This document shows, one piece after another, positions 14,252-21,502 of a stretch of 64,000 bases of DNA. The stretch spans positions 2,304,001 through 2,368,000 of the forward strand of contig OY760074.1 in assembly GCA_963663035.1 (NCBI GenBank), given 5' to 3'. The stretch's first letter is position 1. Each line of letters opens with the position of its first letter. Origin of the DNA: Acidobacteriota bacterium (lineage in GTDB: Bacteria > Acidobacteriota > UBA6911 > RPQK01 > JADFOI01). The notes under the pieces are model-generated. The model was not told where the DNA came from and searched no databases. It saw only the letters and a program-made list of their open reading frames with translations. Position numbers and translations under genes: made by a program.

Positions 14252-15712
14252 TTAGTGCCTCCGCTGCCTCTCTTCCGTCACCCCTTCGCTCACTCTCTCA
14301 GCGTGACGAATACAATCAGAGATGCCCACTCCATCCAGGAAGTTGCCTACCAAGTATAATCCAGGCACCTCATTCAAGTCCTGGCTCAGACGTTCTGTCC
14401 TCTCGTGATGACCCACTTGATACTGAGGTAGAGCGTTCTGCCACCGGTAGACCTTCTGGGAAACAGGTTCCTTCTGAATTCCCATGATCTCCACCAATTC
14501 ATCCTTTATCCTACACACCAGCTCCTCAGTATCTGAAGTCATCCACTTCCTGGCTTGATTCCCTCCCACAAAAGAGCGCAAGAGGGCATGCCCCTTGCGA
14601 CAACGGCCGGGGAATTTGTTGCTCATCCAGGTACAGGCCGCCATGGTCTTCTTTTCACCTTGGGTGACCAGAAAACCGGATCCAGTTCGACCAGCGAGGA
14701 TATCTTCATCGTACGCTAAACTCACGATGATCGCCGAAGCATAGGGGATTTTCTCCAGCAGCTGGGCCATTGGAGGAAAGGCTTTCGAGAGAATCTGGGC
14801 TGAGACATCAGCGGGGGTAGCCAGAATCAGAACGTCAAAATCCTCCCAAACTTCCCTTCTGATCCGCACCTGAAATCCGTGGCTCAGCGCCAGCGCATCA
14901 GACACCTTGGCCTCCAGACGCAGATCGACCCGCTTATTGAGCTCTTTCAGCAAAGCCTCGACCAGCTCAGCTGTTCCTCCCTTGAGCGAAAGGAGGGGGC
15001 TTCCCTCTGCTTTCCGGCCTGCCGCCCCTTTTCTGGGAGCGATTCTTTTCAACAGGCTCTTGGTCAGTTGAAATGGGCTCTTCGTCAATCTGCCGTAGGT
15101 GCGCTCAGCCTCATAGAGATGGGGCAAGGTACTGCGGATGCTGAGAGCAGAGGCATCACCTCCGTAAATGCCAACCACCAAGGGTTCCAAGATCTTTTCT
15201 GCGACCTCTCGACCCAATCTGCGGGAGATGAAGTTTGTCACGGATTCATCTTCGATATTGGCAGAGGAAATCAGGGGCTCCAGAGCTGCTCGAAGGCGAC
15301 CCCGGCAGGAAAGGAGAGGCGTTCTCACCAAGCCAAGCTGATCCAGAGGAGGTTTCGCAAACAGACCCGGCGGTAGAGTATGGAGCTTCCCCTGTGAGAG
15401 GAGATAGGATTTCCGATGGTGGGGCTCTGACCCAACCAATCGCCCTTCCAGGCCCAGCTTGCGGCACAACTCAAGAGCCTGCGGTTTGTGTGCAACGAAA
15501 GAATCGGGTCCCCCTTCCAAAACGAACTCCCCGATCCGTTCTGAGAGAATGGTGCCACCCCAGCGGCTGGACGATTCCAAAAGAACGATTTCGGCTTGAG
15601 ACTGACTCAGACGCTGGCTCAAGAAGTAAGCAGTGGAGAGACCAGAGATGCCTCCTCCAACGATGGCAATCCTGGTGGGTGGGGAATGTCCTTTATCTTT
15701 TGCTCTTGGCAT
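14252..15712 (-). CDS. hemG: protoporphyrinogen/coproporphyrinogen oxidase (HemY type)
   Basis: IVGGGISGL, EGGPDSF, GIYGGD, PQYQVGH, GVGISDCI; follows hemE. Confidence 0.93.
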   Translation of the reverse strand: MPRAKDKGHSPPTRIAIVGGGISGLSTAYFLSQRLSQSQAEIVLLESSSRWGGTILSERIGEFVLEGGPDSFVAHKPQALELCRKLGLEGRLVGSEPHHRKSYLLSQGKLHTLPPGLFAKPPLDQLGLVRTPLLSCRGRLRAALEPLISSANIEDESVTNFISRRLGREVAEKILEPLVVGIYGGDASALSIRSTLPHLYEAERTYGRLTKSPFQLTKSLLKRIAPRKGAAGRKAEGSPLLSLKGGTAELVEALLKELNKRVDLRLEAKVSDALALSHGFQVRIRREVWEDFDVLILATPADVSAQILSKAFPPMAQLLEKIPYASAIIVSLAYDEDILAGRTGSGFLVTQGEKKTMAACTWMSNKFPGRCRKGHALLRSFVGGNQARKWMTSDTEELVCRIKDELVEIMGIQKEPVSQKVYRWQNALPQYQVGHHERTERLSQDLNEVPGLYLVGNFLDGVGISDCIRHAERVSEGVTEERQRRH

Positions 15713-16730
15713 GTACCCACTGGACCACAGCCTCAACATTTTCCAGCGGGGTTTGAGGCAGGATTCCGTGTCCCAGGTTAAAGATGTGACCAGAACGACC
15801 GCCGGCCTGTTCCAGGACCTGGTCAACTTTTTCTTCCAAATAATCCCGGGGTGCGAGCAAGGCCACTGGATCCAGGTTTCCCTGAAGCGGGGTGTCGCTC
15901 CCCAAGCGGCGCCAGGTCTCCTTCAGACTGATCCGCCAATCCACCCCCATCACAGTACCCCCCGCCTCCTTCATCAACTCCAGAAGGGTCGCTGTTCCAG
16001 TACCGAAATGAATCAAGGGAACGGAGAACGGTTTCAAGCGCGCGAAGATTTTCTGAGAATAGGGCAGAACATAACGCCGATAATCTTCCGGTTCCAGACA
16101 TCCTACCCAAGTGTCAAAGAGCTGTATGGCTTGAGCTCCAGCCTCGATCTGAGCGGTGAGGTACTGCGCCATGACTTCCGAGGCCGTCTCCATAAGTCGT
16201 TTCCAGGCCTCGGGGTGGTGATACATGAGCCGTTTCGTATGAAGGAAATTCCTGGAGACTCCTCCTTCAATCATGTAGCTCGCCACGGTAAAAGGTGCTC
16301 CAGCGAATCCGATCAAAGCTGTTTTTGGATCCAACTCGCTGCGCACAAGTCCAAGGGTCTCCATCACACACCGAAGATCTTCTTCTGGATCTCCGACATG
16401 AAGCCTTTTCACATCTTCAGGACTTCTGATGGGCTGGTGGATCACCGGTCCTTCACCTTTGGAAAACTCGAAGTCTACGCCCATGCTCTTGAGGGGCAGC
16501 AGAATATCGGCAAAGATAATTGCTGCGTCCACCTCAAAGCGGCGGATCGGCTGGAGAGTGACCTCCTTGGCCACTTCCGGTCTCGCGCAGATCTCCAAAA
16601 GAGTGTATTTCTCGCGCAGTTTTCGATACTCCTTCATATAACGACCCGCCTGGCGCATGAACCAGACCGGAGTGCAGTCCACTTCCTCGCCCCGGCAGGC
16701 TTTCAAAAACCGCGAATCTTTCTCTGTCAT
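15693..16730 (-). CDS. hemE: uroporphyrinogen decarboxylase
   Basis: PVWFMRQAGRY, IIFADIL, GFAGAPFT, LQGNLDP, IFNLGHGI. Confidence 0.97.
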   Translation of the reverse strand: MTEKDSRFLKACRGEEVDCTPVWFMRQAGRYMKEYRKLREKYTLLEICARPEVAKEVTLQPIRRFEVDAAIIFADILLPLKSMGVDFEFSKGEGPVIHQPIRSPEDVKRLHVGDPEEDLRCVMETLGLVRSELDPKTALIGFAGAPFTVASYMIEGGVSRNFLHTKRLMYHHPEAWKRLMETASEVMAQYLTAQIEAGAQAIQLFDTWVGCLEPEDYRRYVLPYSQKIFARLKPFSVPLIHFGTGTATLLELMKEAGGTVMGVDWRISLKETWRRLGSDTPLQGNLDPVALLAPRDYLEEKVDQVLEQAGGRSGHIFNLGHGILPQTPLENVEAVVQWVHAKSKR

Positions 16731-16773
16731 GCCGCTTTCATCCTATCCCATTTGGATCTCCCACGCAGGTCGT

Positions 16774-16803
16774 TTGACACTGCCTTGGGCTTTCCTCTAA
16801 ACT
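16774..16803 (+). promoter_or_regulatory. sigma70-type promoter for the leader/cysM operon
   Basis: TTGACA-N18-TAAACT, ending 7 nt before GTG 16811 (leaderless geometry). Confidence 0.65.
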
Positions 16804-16810
16804 ACGGGCC

Positions 16811-16999
16811 GTGGATAAAAGCTTGGATTTGAACGACATCGCTCGGTGGGCATGCGGAGATTCCCCTCTGGAGGGGGCCAATTCCTTCTGCACCCCACTG
16901 GACCGTCAGGCCGTGTGTGTCTGCTGCTGTTGTTGTTGTTGTACAAAACTTGTGTCAAGGGAGCAATGCCTGCTGCCGGCTCTTCATCGTAGGGAATAA
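16811..16999 (+). CDS. putative poly-cysteine leader (attenuator) peptide
   Basis: 62 aa, 11 Cys, including 7 consecutive Cys codons at 16922-16942; upstream of a terminator and cysM. Confidence 0.72.
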   Translation: MDKSLDLNDIARWACGDSPLEGANSFCTPLDRQAVCVCCCCCCCTKLVSREQCLLPALHRRE

Positions 17000-17023
17000 T
17001 TCCGAAGCGATATTTGAGACCCG

Positions 17024-17061
17024 AAAGGCCCGCAGGATTGCTCCCGCGGGCCTTTTTTTTT
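17024..17061 (+). terminator. intrinsic terminator (attenuator) in the cysM leader
   Basis: AAAGGCCCGC-aggattgctccc-GCGGGCC followed by T9; 16959-16973 is complementary to 17032-17045. Confidence 0.85.
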
Positions 17062-17100
17062 ACTCTGACGCGAATATGCCATCTTTTTTGGAGATCTCTT

Positions 17101-18057
17101 ATGTCATTACTAGTTCTGTCATCGGACCGTGAGCCGCTCATGGAAGAAGAACGTTCACAGGACGGGGGACTCCTTGCACGAATTGGCAACACTCCTCTCG
17201 TAGAACTTCAAAGGATCTTTCACTCCCCAAGGATCCGCATCTTCGCCAAGCTGGAATGGTTTAACCCGGGGGGCTCGGTGAAGGATCGTGCCGCTTACTC
17301 CATGATCCGAAAAGGAGAGAAAACAGGAGAACTTGGCCCGGGCAAAGTGATTATCGATTCCACCAGCGGCAATACCGGCATTGCCTATGCTTTGATCGCT
17401 GCAACAAAGGGATATAAGCTCTTGCTGGCCCTTCCCTCCAATGCCAGCCTGGAGAGAAAAAAGACCCTGGAAGCTTACGGGGTCGAACTCTTGTTAACGG
17501 ACCCCCTGGAAGGATCCGATGGCTCCATACGGGCCATTCAGGAACTGTACCAGAAATCTCCCGAAAAATATTTCTATCCCGACCAGTACAGCAATGATGC
17601 CAACTGGGAAGCACATTACGATACGACAGCCCCGGAAATCTATGAGGGAACGCACCAGGAGATCACACACTTTGTGGCCGGCCTGGGAACTGGCGGCACT
17701 TTTATGGGCACAACCAGAGGACTGCGGAAAATGAGTCCTGAAATCCAGGCCATTTCCTTTATGCCCAACTCCCCGCTTCACGGGCTGGAAGGGCTCAAAC
17801 ACATGCCCACATCCATAGTTCCAAGTATCTATGATCCCAGTCTGGCCGATGAAAATCTCGAGATTTCCACAGAAGAGTCACAGGAAATGCTCATCCGGTT
17901 GGCTCGGGAAGAGGGCCTTTTCGCCGGCCTGTCCTCCGGTGCAGCCATGGTCGCGGCACTGAAGGTGGCCAAGAACATTGATCGCGGGACCATCGTCACC
18001 GTTTTCCCAGACGGTGGAGACAAGTATCTCTCCGAGGAGTTTTGGAACAGACAGTGA
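17101..18057 (+). CDS. cysM: PLP-dependent cysteine synthase (CysM/CysO-dependent type)
   Basis: IGNTPLV, KLEWFNPGGSVKDR, STSGNTG, GLGTGGT, SSGA; start at ATG 17101 after GGAG. Confidence 0.92.
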   Translation: MSLLVLSSDREPLMEEERSQDGGLLARIGNTPLVELQRIFHSPRIRIFAKLEWFNPGGSVKDRAAYSMIRKGEKTGELGPGKVIIDSTSGNTGIAYALIAATKGYKLLLALPSNASLERKKTLEAYGVELLLTDPLEGSDGSIRAIQELYQKSPEKYFYPDQYSNDANWEAHYDTTAPEIYEGTHQEITHFVAGLGTGGTFMGTTRGLRKMSPEIQAISFMPNSPLHGLEGLKHMPTSIVPSIYDPSLADENLEISTEESQEMLIRLAREEGLFAGLSSGAAMVAALKVAKNIDRGTIVTVFPDGGDKYLSEEFWNRQ

Positions 18058-18473
18058 TCCGACTGAAGTCCAAGGATATCGAGGAAATCAAACGGATTTC
18101 CCAGGAAACCTATCCTCACGAATGTTGCGGCCTGATGGTGGGATCAGTGGAAAATGGCGTGAAAACTGTCACCGAGTGCATTCCCGCAGAGAATCAGCGC
18201 AGCGACAGTCCGGCCAATCGGTATCTCATTTCTTCAGAGTTACTCAATGAGGTAGAGGAGAAGCTGAAAGACACTGGTTTTGCCATCCTGGGGTTTTTCC
18301 ACAGCCATCCGGATGTCCCGGCTCAACCCTCAGCCTACGATCAGGAACATGCCTGGCCCTGGTATTCCTATCTGATCGTTTCCGTACTCAAAGGCAGAGC
18401 CGAGGAATTCCATAACTGGAGACTGAGAGATGATCGCTCTGCTTTTGATCCAGAGAAGGTGGAACTCTTATAA
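18042..18473 (+). CDS. JAMM/M67 metallopeptidase (Mec-like sulfur-carrier peptidase)
   Basis: YPHECCG, FFHSHPDVPAQPSAYD (HxH-x7-SxxD); lies between cysM and the sulfur carrier. Confidence 0.9.
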   Translation: MEQTVIRLKSKDIEEIKRISQETYPHECCGLMVGSVENGVKTVTECIPAENQRSDSPANRYLISSELLNEVEEKLKDTGFAILGFFHSHPDVPAQPSAYDQEHAWPWYSYLIVSVLKGRAEEFHNWRLRDDRSAFDPEKVELL

Positions 18474-18513
18474 ACTAACTTGAGAATCAGCAGAAGATAA
18501 CCAGGAGGCCACA

Positions 18514-18798
18514 ATGGCAGCAACTATTTATATTCCAACCCCATTGAGATCCTACACCGGTAATCAAGAGTCTTTGGAACTGGAAGGAAACACGGTTGGG
18601 GAAGTCTTAAAGAATCTGGCCCAGCAGTATGGAGATCTGAAGAAACACCTGTTCGATGAAGAGGGGAAACTCAGGAATTTCGTCAACATCTATGTCAACG
18701 ACGAAGACATCCGTTACCTCAAGCATGAAGATACGCCCATCAAGGACAAGGACACCATCAGCATCGTCCCCTCCATCGCAGGCGGATTGATATCCTAA
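18514..18798 (+). CDS. ubiquitin-like sulfur carrier (MoaD/ThiS/CysO family)
   Basis: IPTPLR, FVNIYVNDEDIR, C-terminal SIAGG-LIS. Confidence 0.92.
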   Translation: MAATIYIPTPLRSYTGNQESLELEGNTVGEVLKNLAQQYGDLKKHLFDEEGKLRNFVNIYVNDEDIRYLKHEDTPIKDKDTISIVPSIAGGLIS

Positions 18799-18995
18799 CC
18801 GAAAGCTCCTAGCCCGCCTGGCGAATCCACCGACCTTCTCTTGAGCCGCTTTCCAGGAGACTGTCTCCTGAGAGCGGCCGCTACCACTCCGGCATCCGTC
18901 CTTTCCCAAGGTCCCGCACTCCTAGAATCACATTTCCCTTCGCAGTTCTTGCTGACTGGATCGTTATAGAGGACAAGAGGAATGGGGAGAAGACC

Positions 18996-20549
18996 ATGCT
19001 GTTAAAAGTTCAGAGTGCTTCGGTCTTGGGAGTTGAAGCACAGATTATCGACATTGAGGTGGATCTTTCACTTCGTCGGGGACGCAAGTATCACGTTGTA
19101 GGGCTTCCCGACACGGCGGTCAAAGAGAGTGGAGAGCGGGTACGGGCGGCCATCCAAAACTGTGGCTACGAGTATCCCCATCTGGGCTGTATTACCGTCA
19201 ACCTGGCACCGGCCGACTTCAAAAAGGAGGGCAGTTGCTATGATCTCCCCATTGCCCTGGCCGTACTGGGACTCGGTGGAGCCCTGGAACCCGAACACGT
19301 TCGAGATTGGCTGATCCTGGGAGAGCTCTCTTTGGACGGGCGAGTTCGACCCATCCGCGGGGCACTGCCGGTGGCTTTACACGCCAGTCGGAAAAAATTC
19401 AGCAAACTTCTGCTACCGGTAGACAATACCCGGGAGGCTGCGGTCGTGGGCGGGGTGGACATTTACCCCGCCTTTACCCTTCCACAAGTCATACAGTTGC
19501 TCAATGGAGGATCTGCCAAGTACCCACCTATCAAAGTGAAGCACTGCGACTTGTTCAAGGAGCAGACCACGGGGCGGCTGGATTTTATCGATGTGAAGGG
19601 ACAGGAAGCCGCCAAGCGTGCCCTGGAGATGGCTTGTGCCGGAGGTCACAACCTGTTGATGATCGGCCCTCCCGGCGCTGGCAAAACCATGCTGGCCAAA
19701 TGCATTCCATCCATACTGCCGGAAATGAGTTTTGAGGAGGCCCTGGAAACTACGGCTATTCACAGTGTGTGTGGGCTCCTCAAAGGGAAGCAACCGTTCT
19801 TGACCCACCGCCCTTTCCGTGCACCCCATCACACCATCAGCAGCGCCGGGTTGGTGGGAGGTAGTTCCATTCCTCGTCCCGGTGAAGTTTCTCTGGCCCA
19901 CAATGGCGTGCTCTTCTTAGACGAGCTTCCGGAATTTCATCGCCATGTGCTGGAGGTGCTGCGCCAGCCGCTGGAAGAGAGTGAAATCACCATTAGCCGG
20001 GCATTACGCACTCTGACTTTCCCAGCCCGATTTATGCTGGCTGCGGCCATGAACCCTTGCCCCTGCGGATATTGGAACTCGGTCCTGAAGGAATGTGTGT
20101 GCACGCCTCCCCAGATTCAGCACTACCTATCCAAGATTTCAGGTCCTCTCCTGGACCGGATCGATCTCCATATCGACGTCCCGGAAGTCCACTACAAGGA
20201 ACTCATCAAGGATCCCGCTGGAGAATCATCCAAGGTCATTGCACAACGCGTGAGCAAGGCATGTCAGGTTCAGCTGCGGCGCTTTCGCTCCAGCAAGCCC
20301 TCGATCTTCTGCAATGCTCAGATGGGACCGGCCCAGATCCGCAAGTACTGTGCCTTGGAAGACCACATCAAGAAACTCCTGGAAAGCGCTATTCAAAAGC
20401 TCGGCTTTTCGGCCCGTGCCTACCACCGGATTCTCAAGATGGCCCGCACCATCGCTGACCTGGGAGACTCAAAGGAGATCTCCTCTGAGCACGTCTCCGA
20501 GGCCATCCAGTACCGATCCCTGGATCGCAACTTCTGGAAAGATTTCTAG
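18996..20549 (+). CDS. comM: YifB/ComM Mg-chelatase-like AAA ATPase
   Basis: VGLPD, NLAPAD, GPPGAGKT, RPFRAPHH, PGEVSLAHNGVLFLDE, NPCPCG, SGPLLDRID. Confidence 0.95.
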   Translation: MLLKVQSASVLGVEAQIIDIEVDLSLRRGRKYHVVGLPDTAVKESGERVRAAIQNCGYEYPHLGCITVNLAPADFKKEGSCYDLPIALAVLGLGGALEPEHVRDWLILGELSLDGRVRPIRGALPVALHASRKKFSKLLLPVDNTREAAVVGGVDIYPAFTLPQVIQLLNGGSAKYPPIKVKHCDLFKEQTTGRLDFIDVKGQEAAKRALEMACAGGHNLLMIGPPGAGKTMLAKCIPSILPEMSFEEALETTAIHSVCGLLKGKQPFLTHRPFRAPHHTISSAGLVGGSSIPRPGEVSLAHNGVLFLDELPEFHRHVLEVLRQPLEESEITISRALRTLTFPARFMLAAAMNPCPCGYWNSVLKECVCTPPQIQHYLSKISGPLLDRIDLHIDVPEVHYKELIKDPAGESSKVIAQRVSKACQVQLRRFRSSKPSIFCNAQMGPAQIRKYCALEDHIKKLLESAIQKLGFSARAYHRILKMARTIADLGDSKEISSEHVSEAIQYRSLDRNFWKDF

Positions 20550-21502
20550 TCGGGCGTCGGTCTTTTCGGTGACACGCACGTAATTGACCAAAATGCTCCC
20601 ATAAATCAGCGAGTTGACAAGAGTCTGGCACCAATTGAGACCTCTACGACGGCAAGGGAACTTCAGAAAGGTAGGAAATATGCCTCGACGGCCACGAATT
20701 ATTCTTCCCGGCTTTCCCCACCACATCACTCATCGAGGAAACCGGAGGGAAGCGATTTTCCAGAAGGAAGAAGACCGAACCTTCTATTTGGGACACCTTC
20801 AGGAATATTCACAGCTGCATAGGATTCGAGTTTACTCTTATTGCCTGATGACGAACCACATTCACCTTATTGTTGTTCCGGAAACGAAACCTGGCCCTTC
20901 TCGGTGTTTGCACGACCTGCACGGTCGTTACGCCGCCTATTTCAACCAGCAATACAGTCTCAATGGTCACCTTTGGCAAGAGCGATTTTATGCCTGTGCA
21001 CTCGACAATGAACATCTTTGGAATGCGATTCGTTATGTAGAACTAAACCCAGTGCGTGCGAGGATAGTGCCAGTTGCCGAAGACTATCCATGGTCCAGTG
21101 CCGCCGCCCACTGCGGATTGAAGTCAGATCCGATTCTCGACAGACAATTCCCTCCTGAAGTCTTGCGCCAAGCTTGGAGTGACTGGCTTGCCAAGGGCCT
21201 TCCTGAGGACAATCTGGAGCACATCCGACAGGCCACCTGGAAAGGAATACCTTGTAGTTCGGATTCGTTTTTGCGTCAGGTCGAAACAATGTTGGGCATT
21301 CCCTTGTTACCAAGAAGACCTGGCCGGCAGCCCGGTAACGATCTGCCTGGGTGAGACAATTCCGTGCCAGACCTCACTCAAGTCCCTCATTTACAGGAAC
21401 AATTTCGGGAATTACGAGCGTGTCACCCATTTCCATTTCAGTACCGATCCCTGGATCGCAACTTCTGGAAAGACTTCTAATTTCTTTCTTTAGTCGGGCG
21501 TC
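20508..21502. mobile_element. RAYT-like element with ~69-bp imperfect IRs, flanked by a duplication of the comM 3' end
   Basis: Direct repeats 20508-20549 / 21439-21480 (40/42); IRs 20568-20636 / 21358-21427. Confidence 0.7.
20680..21354 (+). CDS. Y1 HUH transposase (REP-associated tyrosine transposase-like)
   Basis: HHITHRGN, YCLMTNHIHL (HUH), LWQERF, RYVELNPVRA, YPWSS. Confidence 0.9.
   Translation: MPRRPRIILPGFPHHITHRGNRREAIFQKEEDRTFYLGHLQEYSQLHRIRVYSYCLMTNHIHLIVVPETKPGPSRCLHDLHGRYAAYFNQQYSLNGHLWQERFYACALDNEHLWNAIRYVELNPVRARIVPVAEDYPWSSAAAHCGLKSDPILDRQFPPEVLRQAWSDWLAKGLPEDNLEHIRQATWKGIPCSSDSFLRQVETMLGIPLLPRRPGRQPGNDLPG

Follow-up and report, generated by a model that had tools for sequence, protein, structure and literature searches.

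A candidate cysteine-sensing transcription attenuator upstream of cysM-mec-cysO in a marine acidobacterium

THE LEADER OF cysM-mec-cysO

The locus considered here lies in a 64,000-nucleotide stretch of DNA from a marine acidobacterium (GenBank assembly GCA_963663035.1, contig OY760074.1; the whole stretch is called the window, and coordinates are counted from its first letter). Upstream of the cysteine-synthase operon cysM-mec-cysO is a leader in which a sequence-only reading had proposed a leaderless poly-Cys open reading frame (ORF), an antiterminator, and an intrinsic terminator. Both the anatomy of the leader and its conservation in a family of related elements support that proposal. Judged from sequence, the element very probably responds to the supply of Cys-tRNA and controls cysM-mec-cysO by ribosome-mediated (leader-peptide) transcription attenuation. 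Its parts, all on the forward strand, are these.

16774-16779, forward strand: -35-like hexamer TTGACA, of the TTGAC[AT] type contained in the strict promoter pattern of 12 of 19 family members
16798-16803, forward strand: -10-like hexamer TAAACT, 18 nt past the -35 and 7 nt before the GTG; aligned as TAnnnT in relatives (alignment A3)
16811-16999, forward strand: leader ORF of 62 codons, GTG start without a ribosome-binding site, 11 Cys codons, stop TAA at 16997-16999
16850-16921, forward strand: lineage-specific in-frame extension of about 24 codons, delimited by alignment A3 and folds, containing a strong local hairpin
16922-16942, forward strand: run of seven consecutive Cys codons (TGC twice, TGT five times), the proposed regulatory codons
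16959-16977, forward strand: 5' strand of the antiterminator (region 2), pairing with 17027-17045
16978-17021, forward strand: middle hairpin between region 2 and the terminator, with the leader stop codon in its apical part
17023-17061, forward strand: intrinsic terminator, hairpin 17023-17056 with a 9-T tract at 17053-17061

The promoter-like hexamers and the GTG lacking a ribosome-binding site are present where they had been read, and the frame with 11 Cys, seven of them consecutive, is confirmed. None of GGAG, GAGG, AGGA, or AAGG occurs 7-16 nt upstream of GTG 16811. A 4-kb scan finds two promoter-like sites against 2.0 +/- 1.4 expected, which is the level of chance; support for this one comes from its conservation in relatives (see "A family of cysteine leaders") and not from its own count.

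The cysteines of the predicted peptide (C15, C27, C36, C38-C44, and C53) take up 11 of its 62 codons; across the long ORFs of the host genome, hereafter G000, the Cys share is 0.83%. Nowhere else in these 3.59 Mb is there a TGY run as long as the seven codons found here, for which the chance expectation is about 6e-5; there are also one run of five and fifteen of four, and all of these other runs of at least four codons lie within long ORFs of another frame. A genome-wide scan for a Cys-dense frame followed by a hairpin and a T-run gave 32 weak matches, with six of six Cys in the cysM leader alone. No second Cys attenuator was found in G000 by this Cys-density and terminator scan or by a covariance model of the family (R1, described below), whose matches in G000 other than the element are terminator-like palindromes only.

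The strong terminator predicted before cysM is likewise borne out, although a consensus scanner missed it owing to its internal loop. It ends 39 nt before the cysM ATG, and since hemE, upstream, is divergent and on the other strand, it ends no upstream gene. Its 5' arm and loop constitute region 3 and its 3' arm region 4. The one-bulge pairing of GGGAGCAATGCCTGC (16959-16973) with GCAGGATTGCTCCC (17032-17045) holds as proposed, with 9 bp, a G bulge, and 5 bp, and region 2 begins 16 nt past the last Cys codon.

The extension at 16850-16921 is confined to three cysM-type leaders: those of G000, L032 (genome G002), and L063 (a metagenome contig). It is single-copy in G000, and a repeat or mobile element was ruled out on that ground.

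THE OPERON AND ITS HOST

The genome of the host is 3.59 Mb in one contig and 96.6% complete. After the terminator come three genes, in the order cysM, mec (encoding a JAB-domain protein), and cysO (encoding a ThiS-family protein).

17091-18057, forward strand: cysM with its ribosome-binding site (GGAG 17091-17094, ATG 17101), a CysK/CysM-family cysteine synthase
18054-18473, forward strand: mec, a JAB/MPN-type metalloprotease (Prok-JAB, 71.9 bits)
18514-18798, forward strand: cysO, a ThiS/MoaD-type sulfur carrier (ThiS 66 bits, SAMP1 60.6 bits, moaD_arch 56.1 bits)

The cysM protein scores 344.9 bits against TIGR01136 (cysKM; cut-off 344.15) and 355.3 bits against TIGR01138 (cysM), under the latter's cut-off of 394.2. 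Its ribosome-binding region (17091-17104) contains an 8-nt palindrome, and one fold pairs the region with 16850-16862 in the leader extension. The listed ORF for mec starts at TTG 18042; the GTG at 18054, overlapping the cysM stop, is the likelier start. The CysO-like carrier has three residues beyond its Gly-Gly, so that its C-terminus is not Gly-Gly, which fits a need for processing by the neighboring JAB protease.

The operon holds the sole cysteine-synthase homologue found in G000. Neither a PAPS-reductase gene (PAPS_reduct, PF01507) nor a sulfite/nitrite reductase gene (NIR_SIR, PF01077) was found in this 96.6%-complete, single-contig genome; same-genus relatives have both the PAPS reductase and the sulfite reductase gene, each behind a Cys attenuator. 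From its gene content, the organism is apparently unable to assimilate sulfate and dependent on cysM-mec-cysO.

A FAMILY OF CYSTEINE LEADERS

The 600 nt upstream of cysM were surveyed in 29 relatives' loci (L028 was left out, its match being cut by a contig end), and five showed a run of at least four Cys codons followed by a terminator of similar loop. A pattern built from those five (four TGY codons, a gap of 65-95 nt, and terminator arms) occurs at 19 places in species-representative genomes: 13 before PAPS_reduct genes (cysH), four before cysM, one before a DUF4202 gene, and one false. The false match, inside a long ORF, is in a Rhodospirillaceae metagenome-assembled genome (MAG); all the others sit in MAGs titled Acidobacteriota or Acidobacteria, Phycisphaerae, or Planctomycetales. 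Metagenome contigs yielded 15 further places, nine before cysH, four before cysM/K-like genes, one cut by a contig end, and one false; Pfam was applied to nine of these 15, the remaining downstream genes being judged by eye from translations.

The covariance model R1, made of the Cys codons and the terminator, was run on 76 genomes of the order and matched over its full length, at E<=1e-7, at 32 places in 25 of them. Thirty of these loci were fetched: 27 have a Cys-rich short ORF, and L090, L093, and L094 were discarded as false matches. The first downstream gene in the 27 is cysH-like in 16, cysM/K-like in six, a sulfite reductase gene in one, a DUF4202 gene followed by a sulfite reductase gene in one, and a gene for an unnamed protein in three. 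Six genomes have a second copy of the element before a gene for a 774-residue sulfite reductase (assigned by Pfam in one, L095). Across the family, then, the downstream genes are nearly all cysH, sulfite reductase, or cysM. In three genomes of the same genus (G001, G003, and G004) the element heads a cysH-first operon, with cysM about 2.3 kb downstream by way of a tetrapyrrole-methylase gene; the single element of G000 lies directly before cysM.

Alignment A3 covers 13 sequences from promoter to terminator. In it the -35, -10, start codon, Cys run, antiterminator strand, middle hairpin, and terminator all align with relatives' cysH leaders; the -35 column served as the cutting anchor and is invariant by construction. 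The start-codon column is kept as GTG, ATG, or TTG, 6-9 nt past the -10. By this alignment the whole cysM leader is homologous to the relatives' cysH leaders; the element is a real and conserved cis-regulatory one.

The arrangement of promoter and start recurs as well. A strict layout, TTGAC[AT]-N16-18-TANNNT-N5-10-[AG]TG, for which a rough chance estimate is about 1e-3 per 220 nt, is found in 12 of 19 members, and in 12 of 12 the start is in frame with the Cys run and no stop intervenes. Cys-run indels between close relatives are multiples of three. It is fairly likely, from this layout, that the leader mRNA is leaderless.

At the aligned place the Cys run has seven codons in G000, six in L032, eight in L063, and 3-7 elsewhere among relatives, and the N-terminal part ranges from about 10 to about 40 codons. 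Substitutions between the leader ORF and that of the closest relative, G002, number 7/6/6 at codon positions 1/2/3; given this lack of third-position bias, the leader peptide itself is neither constrained nor selected. In L096 and L097, 1-nt indels past the Cys run shift the C-terminal frame and the RNA sequence is kept.

Several arrangements seen in the same surveys deserve mention in their own right. At L087 (G028), L088 (G018), and L092 (G065) the element precedes genes for related proteins of 297-356 residues without a Pfam match; these are candidate members of a cysteine/sulfur regulon. At L039/L073 (G023) the element is followed by a DUF4202 gene and then by a sulfite reductase gene, an arrangement that links DUF4202 to sulfur assimilation. 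In L006 (G008), L009 (G021), L012 (G015), and L010 (G017), cysM directly follows an Rrf2-family regulator gene and has no adjacent Cys leader, which suggests protein-based control of the same gene; the Rrf2 calls are by Pfam for L006 and L009 only, and the statement stands without G017, a genome flagged as unpublished. Finally, the contig of L023 (the same as L042, in G040) has in its first 170 nt, just upstream of the cysM leader, tandem 7-nt repeats and a second short tandem repeat.

ALTERNATIVE STRUCTURES

Region 2 can pair with region 3, and region 3 is needed for the terminator, so that the two structures are mutually exclusive. A transcript cut at 17045 contains region 3 but not yet region 4. 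Its fold of lowest energy is the antiterminator, at about 14 expected pairs; a ribosome mask on region 2, of a footprint size that is an assumption in all masked folds, lowers these to zero. The full-length leader is near balance (4-6 antiterminator against 6.5-8 terminator pairs), and with a ribosome modeled at the stop codon the terminator wins by 10.6 to 0.4 expected pairs. Folding with and without a mask had been proposed as a check by the sequence-only reading, and the outcome agrees with it: with region 2 masked, the antiterminator is lost and the terminator forms. The geometry is shared by the family. When the region past the Cys codons was compared with the terminator 5' arm and loop, 18 of 19 members had their best duplex starting 15-25 nt past the last Cys codon.

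The pairing partners are also matched to one another. Exchange of antiterminator windows among elements weakens the mean duplex from -16.0 kcal/mol (cognate) to -14.1 kcal/mol (swapped); the cognate mean is reached by seven of 20,000 permutations, and by 85 of 20,000 for the 15 elements with distinct loops, figures that, like those from shuffles, overstate independence because the sequences of the family are kin. A further alignment, A4, was made with MAFFT from 20 leaders and fitted to no structure. On it, 84.7% of the ON structure is paired, compared with 34-45% for slid versions, with six pairs (equaled in 36 of 500 shuffles) and 14 cells (one of 500) changed on both sides. The antiterminator helix is 83% paired, and four of its pairs are changed on both sides. 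For the terminator the paired share is 94.5%, with three such pairs and a covariation score reached by none of 500 shuffles. Column 99 (window 17027) changes in step with each of its alternative partners, the one in the antiterminator (UA:8, CG:7) and the one in the terminator (AU:11, GC:7). The comparisons show covariation between the antiterminator strand and the terminator loop. The helices of the middle hairpin, which is specific to the acidobacterial subfamily, are 94%, 88%, and 74% paired.

Alignment of upstream regions had likewise been suggested as a source of conserved Cys runs and compensatory changes. The Cys run was recovered, and the compensatory pair changes appear in A4; in A3 the column-wise covariation is at shuffle level, as taken up below.

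HOW THE SWITCH MAY WORK

From this anatomy we infer a transcription start, translation of the leader, stalling, and a dependence on cysteine. Transcription would start about 7 nt past the -10, so that the mRNA would begin at or beside GTG 16811, and the leader would be translated without a Shine-Dalgarno (SD) sequence. When Cys-tRNA is plentiful, the ribosome would pass the seven Cys codons and, while polymerase synthesizes 17023-17061, would cover first 16959-16977 and then the middle hairpin; the terminator would then form, and transcription would end before cysM. When Cys-tRNA is scarce, the ribosome would stall at 16922-16942 and leave free the strand 16 nt downstream, which would pair with the emerging terminator 5' arm and loop, blocking the terminator and allowing polymerase to enter cysM.

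One detail of the occlusion step needs amendment. The sequence-only reading had a ribosome at the stop occlude the antiterminator strand. Region 2 would indeed be covered in transit, but not by a ribosome at the stop at 16997, whose footprint would be about 16981-17010; there the ribosome would instead melt the middle hairpin, which holds regions 2 and 3 together. The trp/his-type geometry invoked by the same reading stands as regards a terminator and antiterminator after the regulatory codons, and falls as regards a trp-like 1:2 hairpin. That hairpin is a feature of the trp model and is not needed in every attenuator. When the leader is folded, the Cys run finds its partner in upstream leader sequence and not in region 2, which forms a small local hairpin only. 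Because the 1:2 hairpin is missing, the device is better called a three-region attenuator, and an untranslated leader is expected to read through.

A more specific version combines these features, tentatively, into a three-region, translation-dependent terminator switch that was kept or copied before cysM and perhaps retuned. With no anti-antiterminator, the antiterminator would be the default, and termination would require a ribosome on region 2; leaderless initiation at the extreme 5' end would, we infer, secure the coupling of transcription and translation. A lineage without cysH and sulfite reductase would have kept, or copied, a sulfate-assimilation attenuator before cysM-mec-cysO. Retuning may have expanded a run of 3-4 Cys codons to one of 7-8 and added about 24 codons with a hairpin.

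Beyond the kinship of the sequences, several results weigh against a ribosome-mediated attenuator at cysM. Full-length equilibrium folds do not switch cleanly under a modeled stalled ribosome, and no trp-like 1:2 hairpin (anti-antiterminator or pause hairpin) is predicted in the leader folds. Taken one element at a time, the duplexes have modest z-scores (+0.4 to -2.5). In L032 (= G002) and L063, the closest relatives, the antiterminator strand carries two changes that are not compensated, and their antiterminator duplex, at -14.9 kcal/mol, has z = -0.12 against shuffles. Column-wise covariation in the 13 sequences of A3 is not above shuffles (203 of 500); its inner middle-hairpin columns are misaligned, and the 20-sequence A4 gave the clearer result. 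For 54 unique elements, the swap-test figure of 0 of 20,000 permutations reaching the cognate value may be inflated by composition differences or high-GC members. Leaderless translation from GTG is weak in some bacteria; GUG-initiated leaderless mRNAs are reported for mycobacteria (10.1101/834739). Among public runs, only two metatranscriptome contig sets contain 6-7% of the sampled words; their contigs match parts of cysM and of cysO, with 90-99% likeness, and leave 16754-17061 uncovered. Such contigs cannot show transcript starts or ends, and they weigh neither for nor against a start or termination at the places proposed.

OTHER EXPLANATIONS

Terminator/antiterminator leaders that work without translation are common, and this one could in principle be an untranslated RNA switch, a riboswitch or protein-binding leader in which the TGY run is an RNA motif and the open frame an accident. 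An Rfam scan of 15500-19500 at E<=10 gave nothing near a gathering score (the best match was Trp_leader, at 18 bits and E = 3.9), and the absence of any family at threshold argues against it. So do the in-frame starts without an intervening stop in 12 of 12 strict-promoter members, and the Cys-run indels in multiples of three. Leaders that otherwise differ greatly, in two phyla, have a single feature in common: their Cys codons stand at a fixed distance ahead of the antiterminator strand. An untranslated switch is quite unlikely.

Translational attenuation of the mycobacterial type is a second candidate: the poly-Cys tract would pair with the SD sequence of cysM, a stalled ribosome would unmask it, and the T-tract hairpin would be incidental. 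Leaderless poly-Cys short ORFs act in this way in Mycolicibacterium smegmatis (10.1101/834739), and one long-range fold of 16811-17130 does pair the cysM SD region with leader 16850-16862. The SD partner moves to 16815-16830, however, when a longer stretch is folded, and this pairing was set aside for that reason. Occlusion of the SD sequence by the Cys tract was rejected on the weakness of the duplex between 16910-16950 and 17078-17106, which at -6.1 kcal/mol is worse than 490 of 500 shuffles. The canonical 9-T terminator, conserved family-wide, also speaks against translational control, which we regard as decidedly improbable.

It might further be supposed that the product of the leader ORF is itself functional, a small Cys-rich protein with, say, metal or redox activity, and that the ORF is merely co-transcribed with cysM. 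Eleven Cys in 62 residues, and a C-terminal part similar to that of relatives' leaders, would suit such a product. Its conserved C-terminal codons, however, overlap region 2 and the middle hairpin, and the 1-nt indels of L096 and L097 change the C-terminal frame with the nucleotides kept. Against a small protein stand also the 7/6/6 substitutions, with no third-position bias; a Cys number of 3 to 8 and an N-terminal length of about 10 to about 40 codons; and a leader peptide that matches no protein family. The probability of this explanation is very small.

Least probable of all, and very unlikely given the comparative data, is a chance trinucleotide repeat beside an ordinary terminator, with no regulatory role: (TGT)5 is slippage-prone and the run has six, seven, or eight codons among relatives, but the TGY run is unique in the genome, the whole arrangement is kept across the order and in a second phylum before sulfur/cysteine genes, and with hemE divergent the terminator ends no upstream gene.

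REPEATS ELSEWHERE IN THE GENOME

A 26-nt GC-rich palindrome with conserved flanks occurs at at least nine places in G000 (contig C1: 662355, 1349318, 2614977, 3034001, 3058602, 3070149, 3085039, 3281047, and 3562402), all nine outside the window, and its stem is nearly identical to that of the attenuator terminator. These repeats look like repetitive extragenic palindromic (REP) elements. Within the window, 20614-21351 holds a Y1_Tnp transposase gene (IS200-like, possibly REP-associated).

WHAT A CYSTEINE ATTENUATOR WOULD ADD

From the amino acids under classical leader-peptide transcription attenuation cysteine has been conspicuously missing, and the experimentally studied Cys leader ORFs are mycobacterial only and act on translation. 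The literature searched, outside which lay subscription journals and supplementary files, contained no account of a Cys leader of the terminator type ahead of cysteine-biosynthesis genes. To that extent the statement that a terminator-based Cys attenuator is undescribed in this lineage holds: the attenuation principle is textbook, and its cysteine version before biosynthesis genes appears to be undescribed in print.

If confirmed, a terminator-based Cys attenuator in Acidobacteriota and Phycisphaerae would close the cysteine gap and would provide a cis-regulatory marker of cysteine/sulfur regulons in poorly studied, mostly uncultured phyla. The family would also offer a natural series on codon number and sensitivity, with 3 to 8 Cys codons, in which the position of the stop codon, inside or well past the antiterminator strand, varies as well. 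The element would point to unnamed co-controlled proteins (those of L087, L088, and L092). With sister families that have an Rrf2-type gene before cysM, the order allows RNA- and protein-based control to be compared.

COMPARISON WITH KNOWN SYSTEMS

The classical mechanism, as summarized in 10.1101/834739, is that of the Escherichia coli trp and Salmonella his attenuators. The cysM element resembles these in its short upstream ORF rich in codons for the end product, in the intrinsic terminator before the first structural gene, and in an antiterminator that cannot coexist with the terminator and has its 5' strand just past the regulatory codons. It differs in that it would sense cysteine and is probably leaderless rather than SD-led; it has no predicted 1:2 hairpin and instead a conserved middle hairpin that holds the stop codon. 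It occurs in Acidobacteriota and Planctomycetota and shows no sequence relationship to the classical leaders (Trp_leader, 18 bits, E = 3.9).

Similar in their coding part are the polycysteine short ORFs (sORFs) of mycobacteria (Canestrari et al. 2020, 10.1101/834739). These are leaderless, as the cysM leader probably is, have consecutive Cys codons, lie upstream of cysteine/sulfur genes, and sense cysteine through ribosome stalling. The mycobacterial element acts on translation, its Cys tract pairing with the SD sequence, and was shown there not to terminate transcription. The cysM element, in contrast, has a canonical terminator and no complementarity between Cys tract and SD sequence. Candidate Cys leaders of actinobacteria (Seliverstov et al. 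2005, PMC1262725) are similar as short ORFs with Cys-codon runs near the stop, upstream of cys operons; that paper describes them without terminator hairpins and with their mode of regulation unknown.

On the side of termination there is uORFC-8-2, an upstream ORF (uORF) before cysS in Rhodobacterales (Alphaproteobacteria) that is predicted to be a ribosome-mediated attenuator (Brewer et al. 2021, PMC8632094). As here, its uORF contains Cys codons and a U run follows the terminator stem, but its two tandem Cys codons lie inside the first stem and it controls a Cys-tRNA synthetase gene. The present family has 3-8 Cys codons, biosynthetic targets (cysM, cysH, and sulfite reductase), a probably leaderless layout, and another structure, and in the cysM leader the 7-Cys run lies upstream of the switch helices. 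Set beside all of these, the mechanism proposed for cysM-mec-cysO is classical leader-peptide attenuation, and not a new kind of device.

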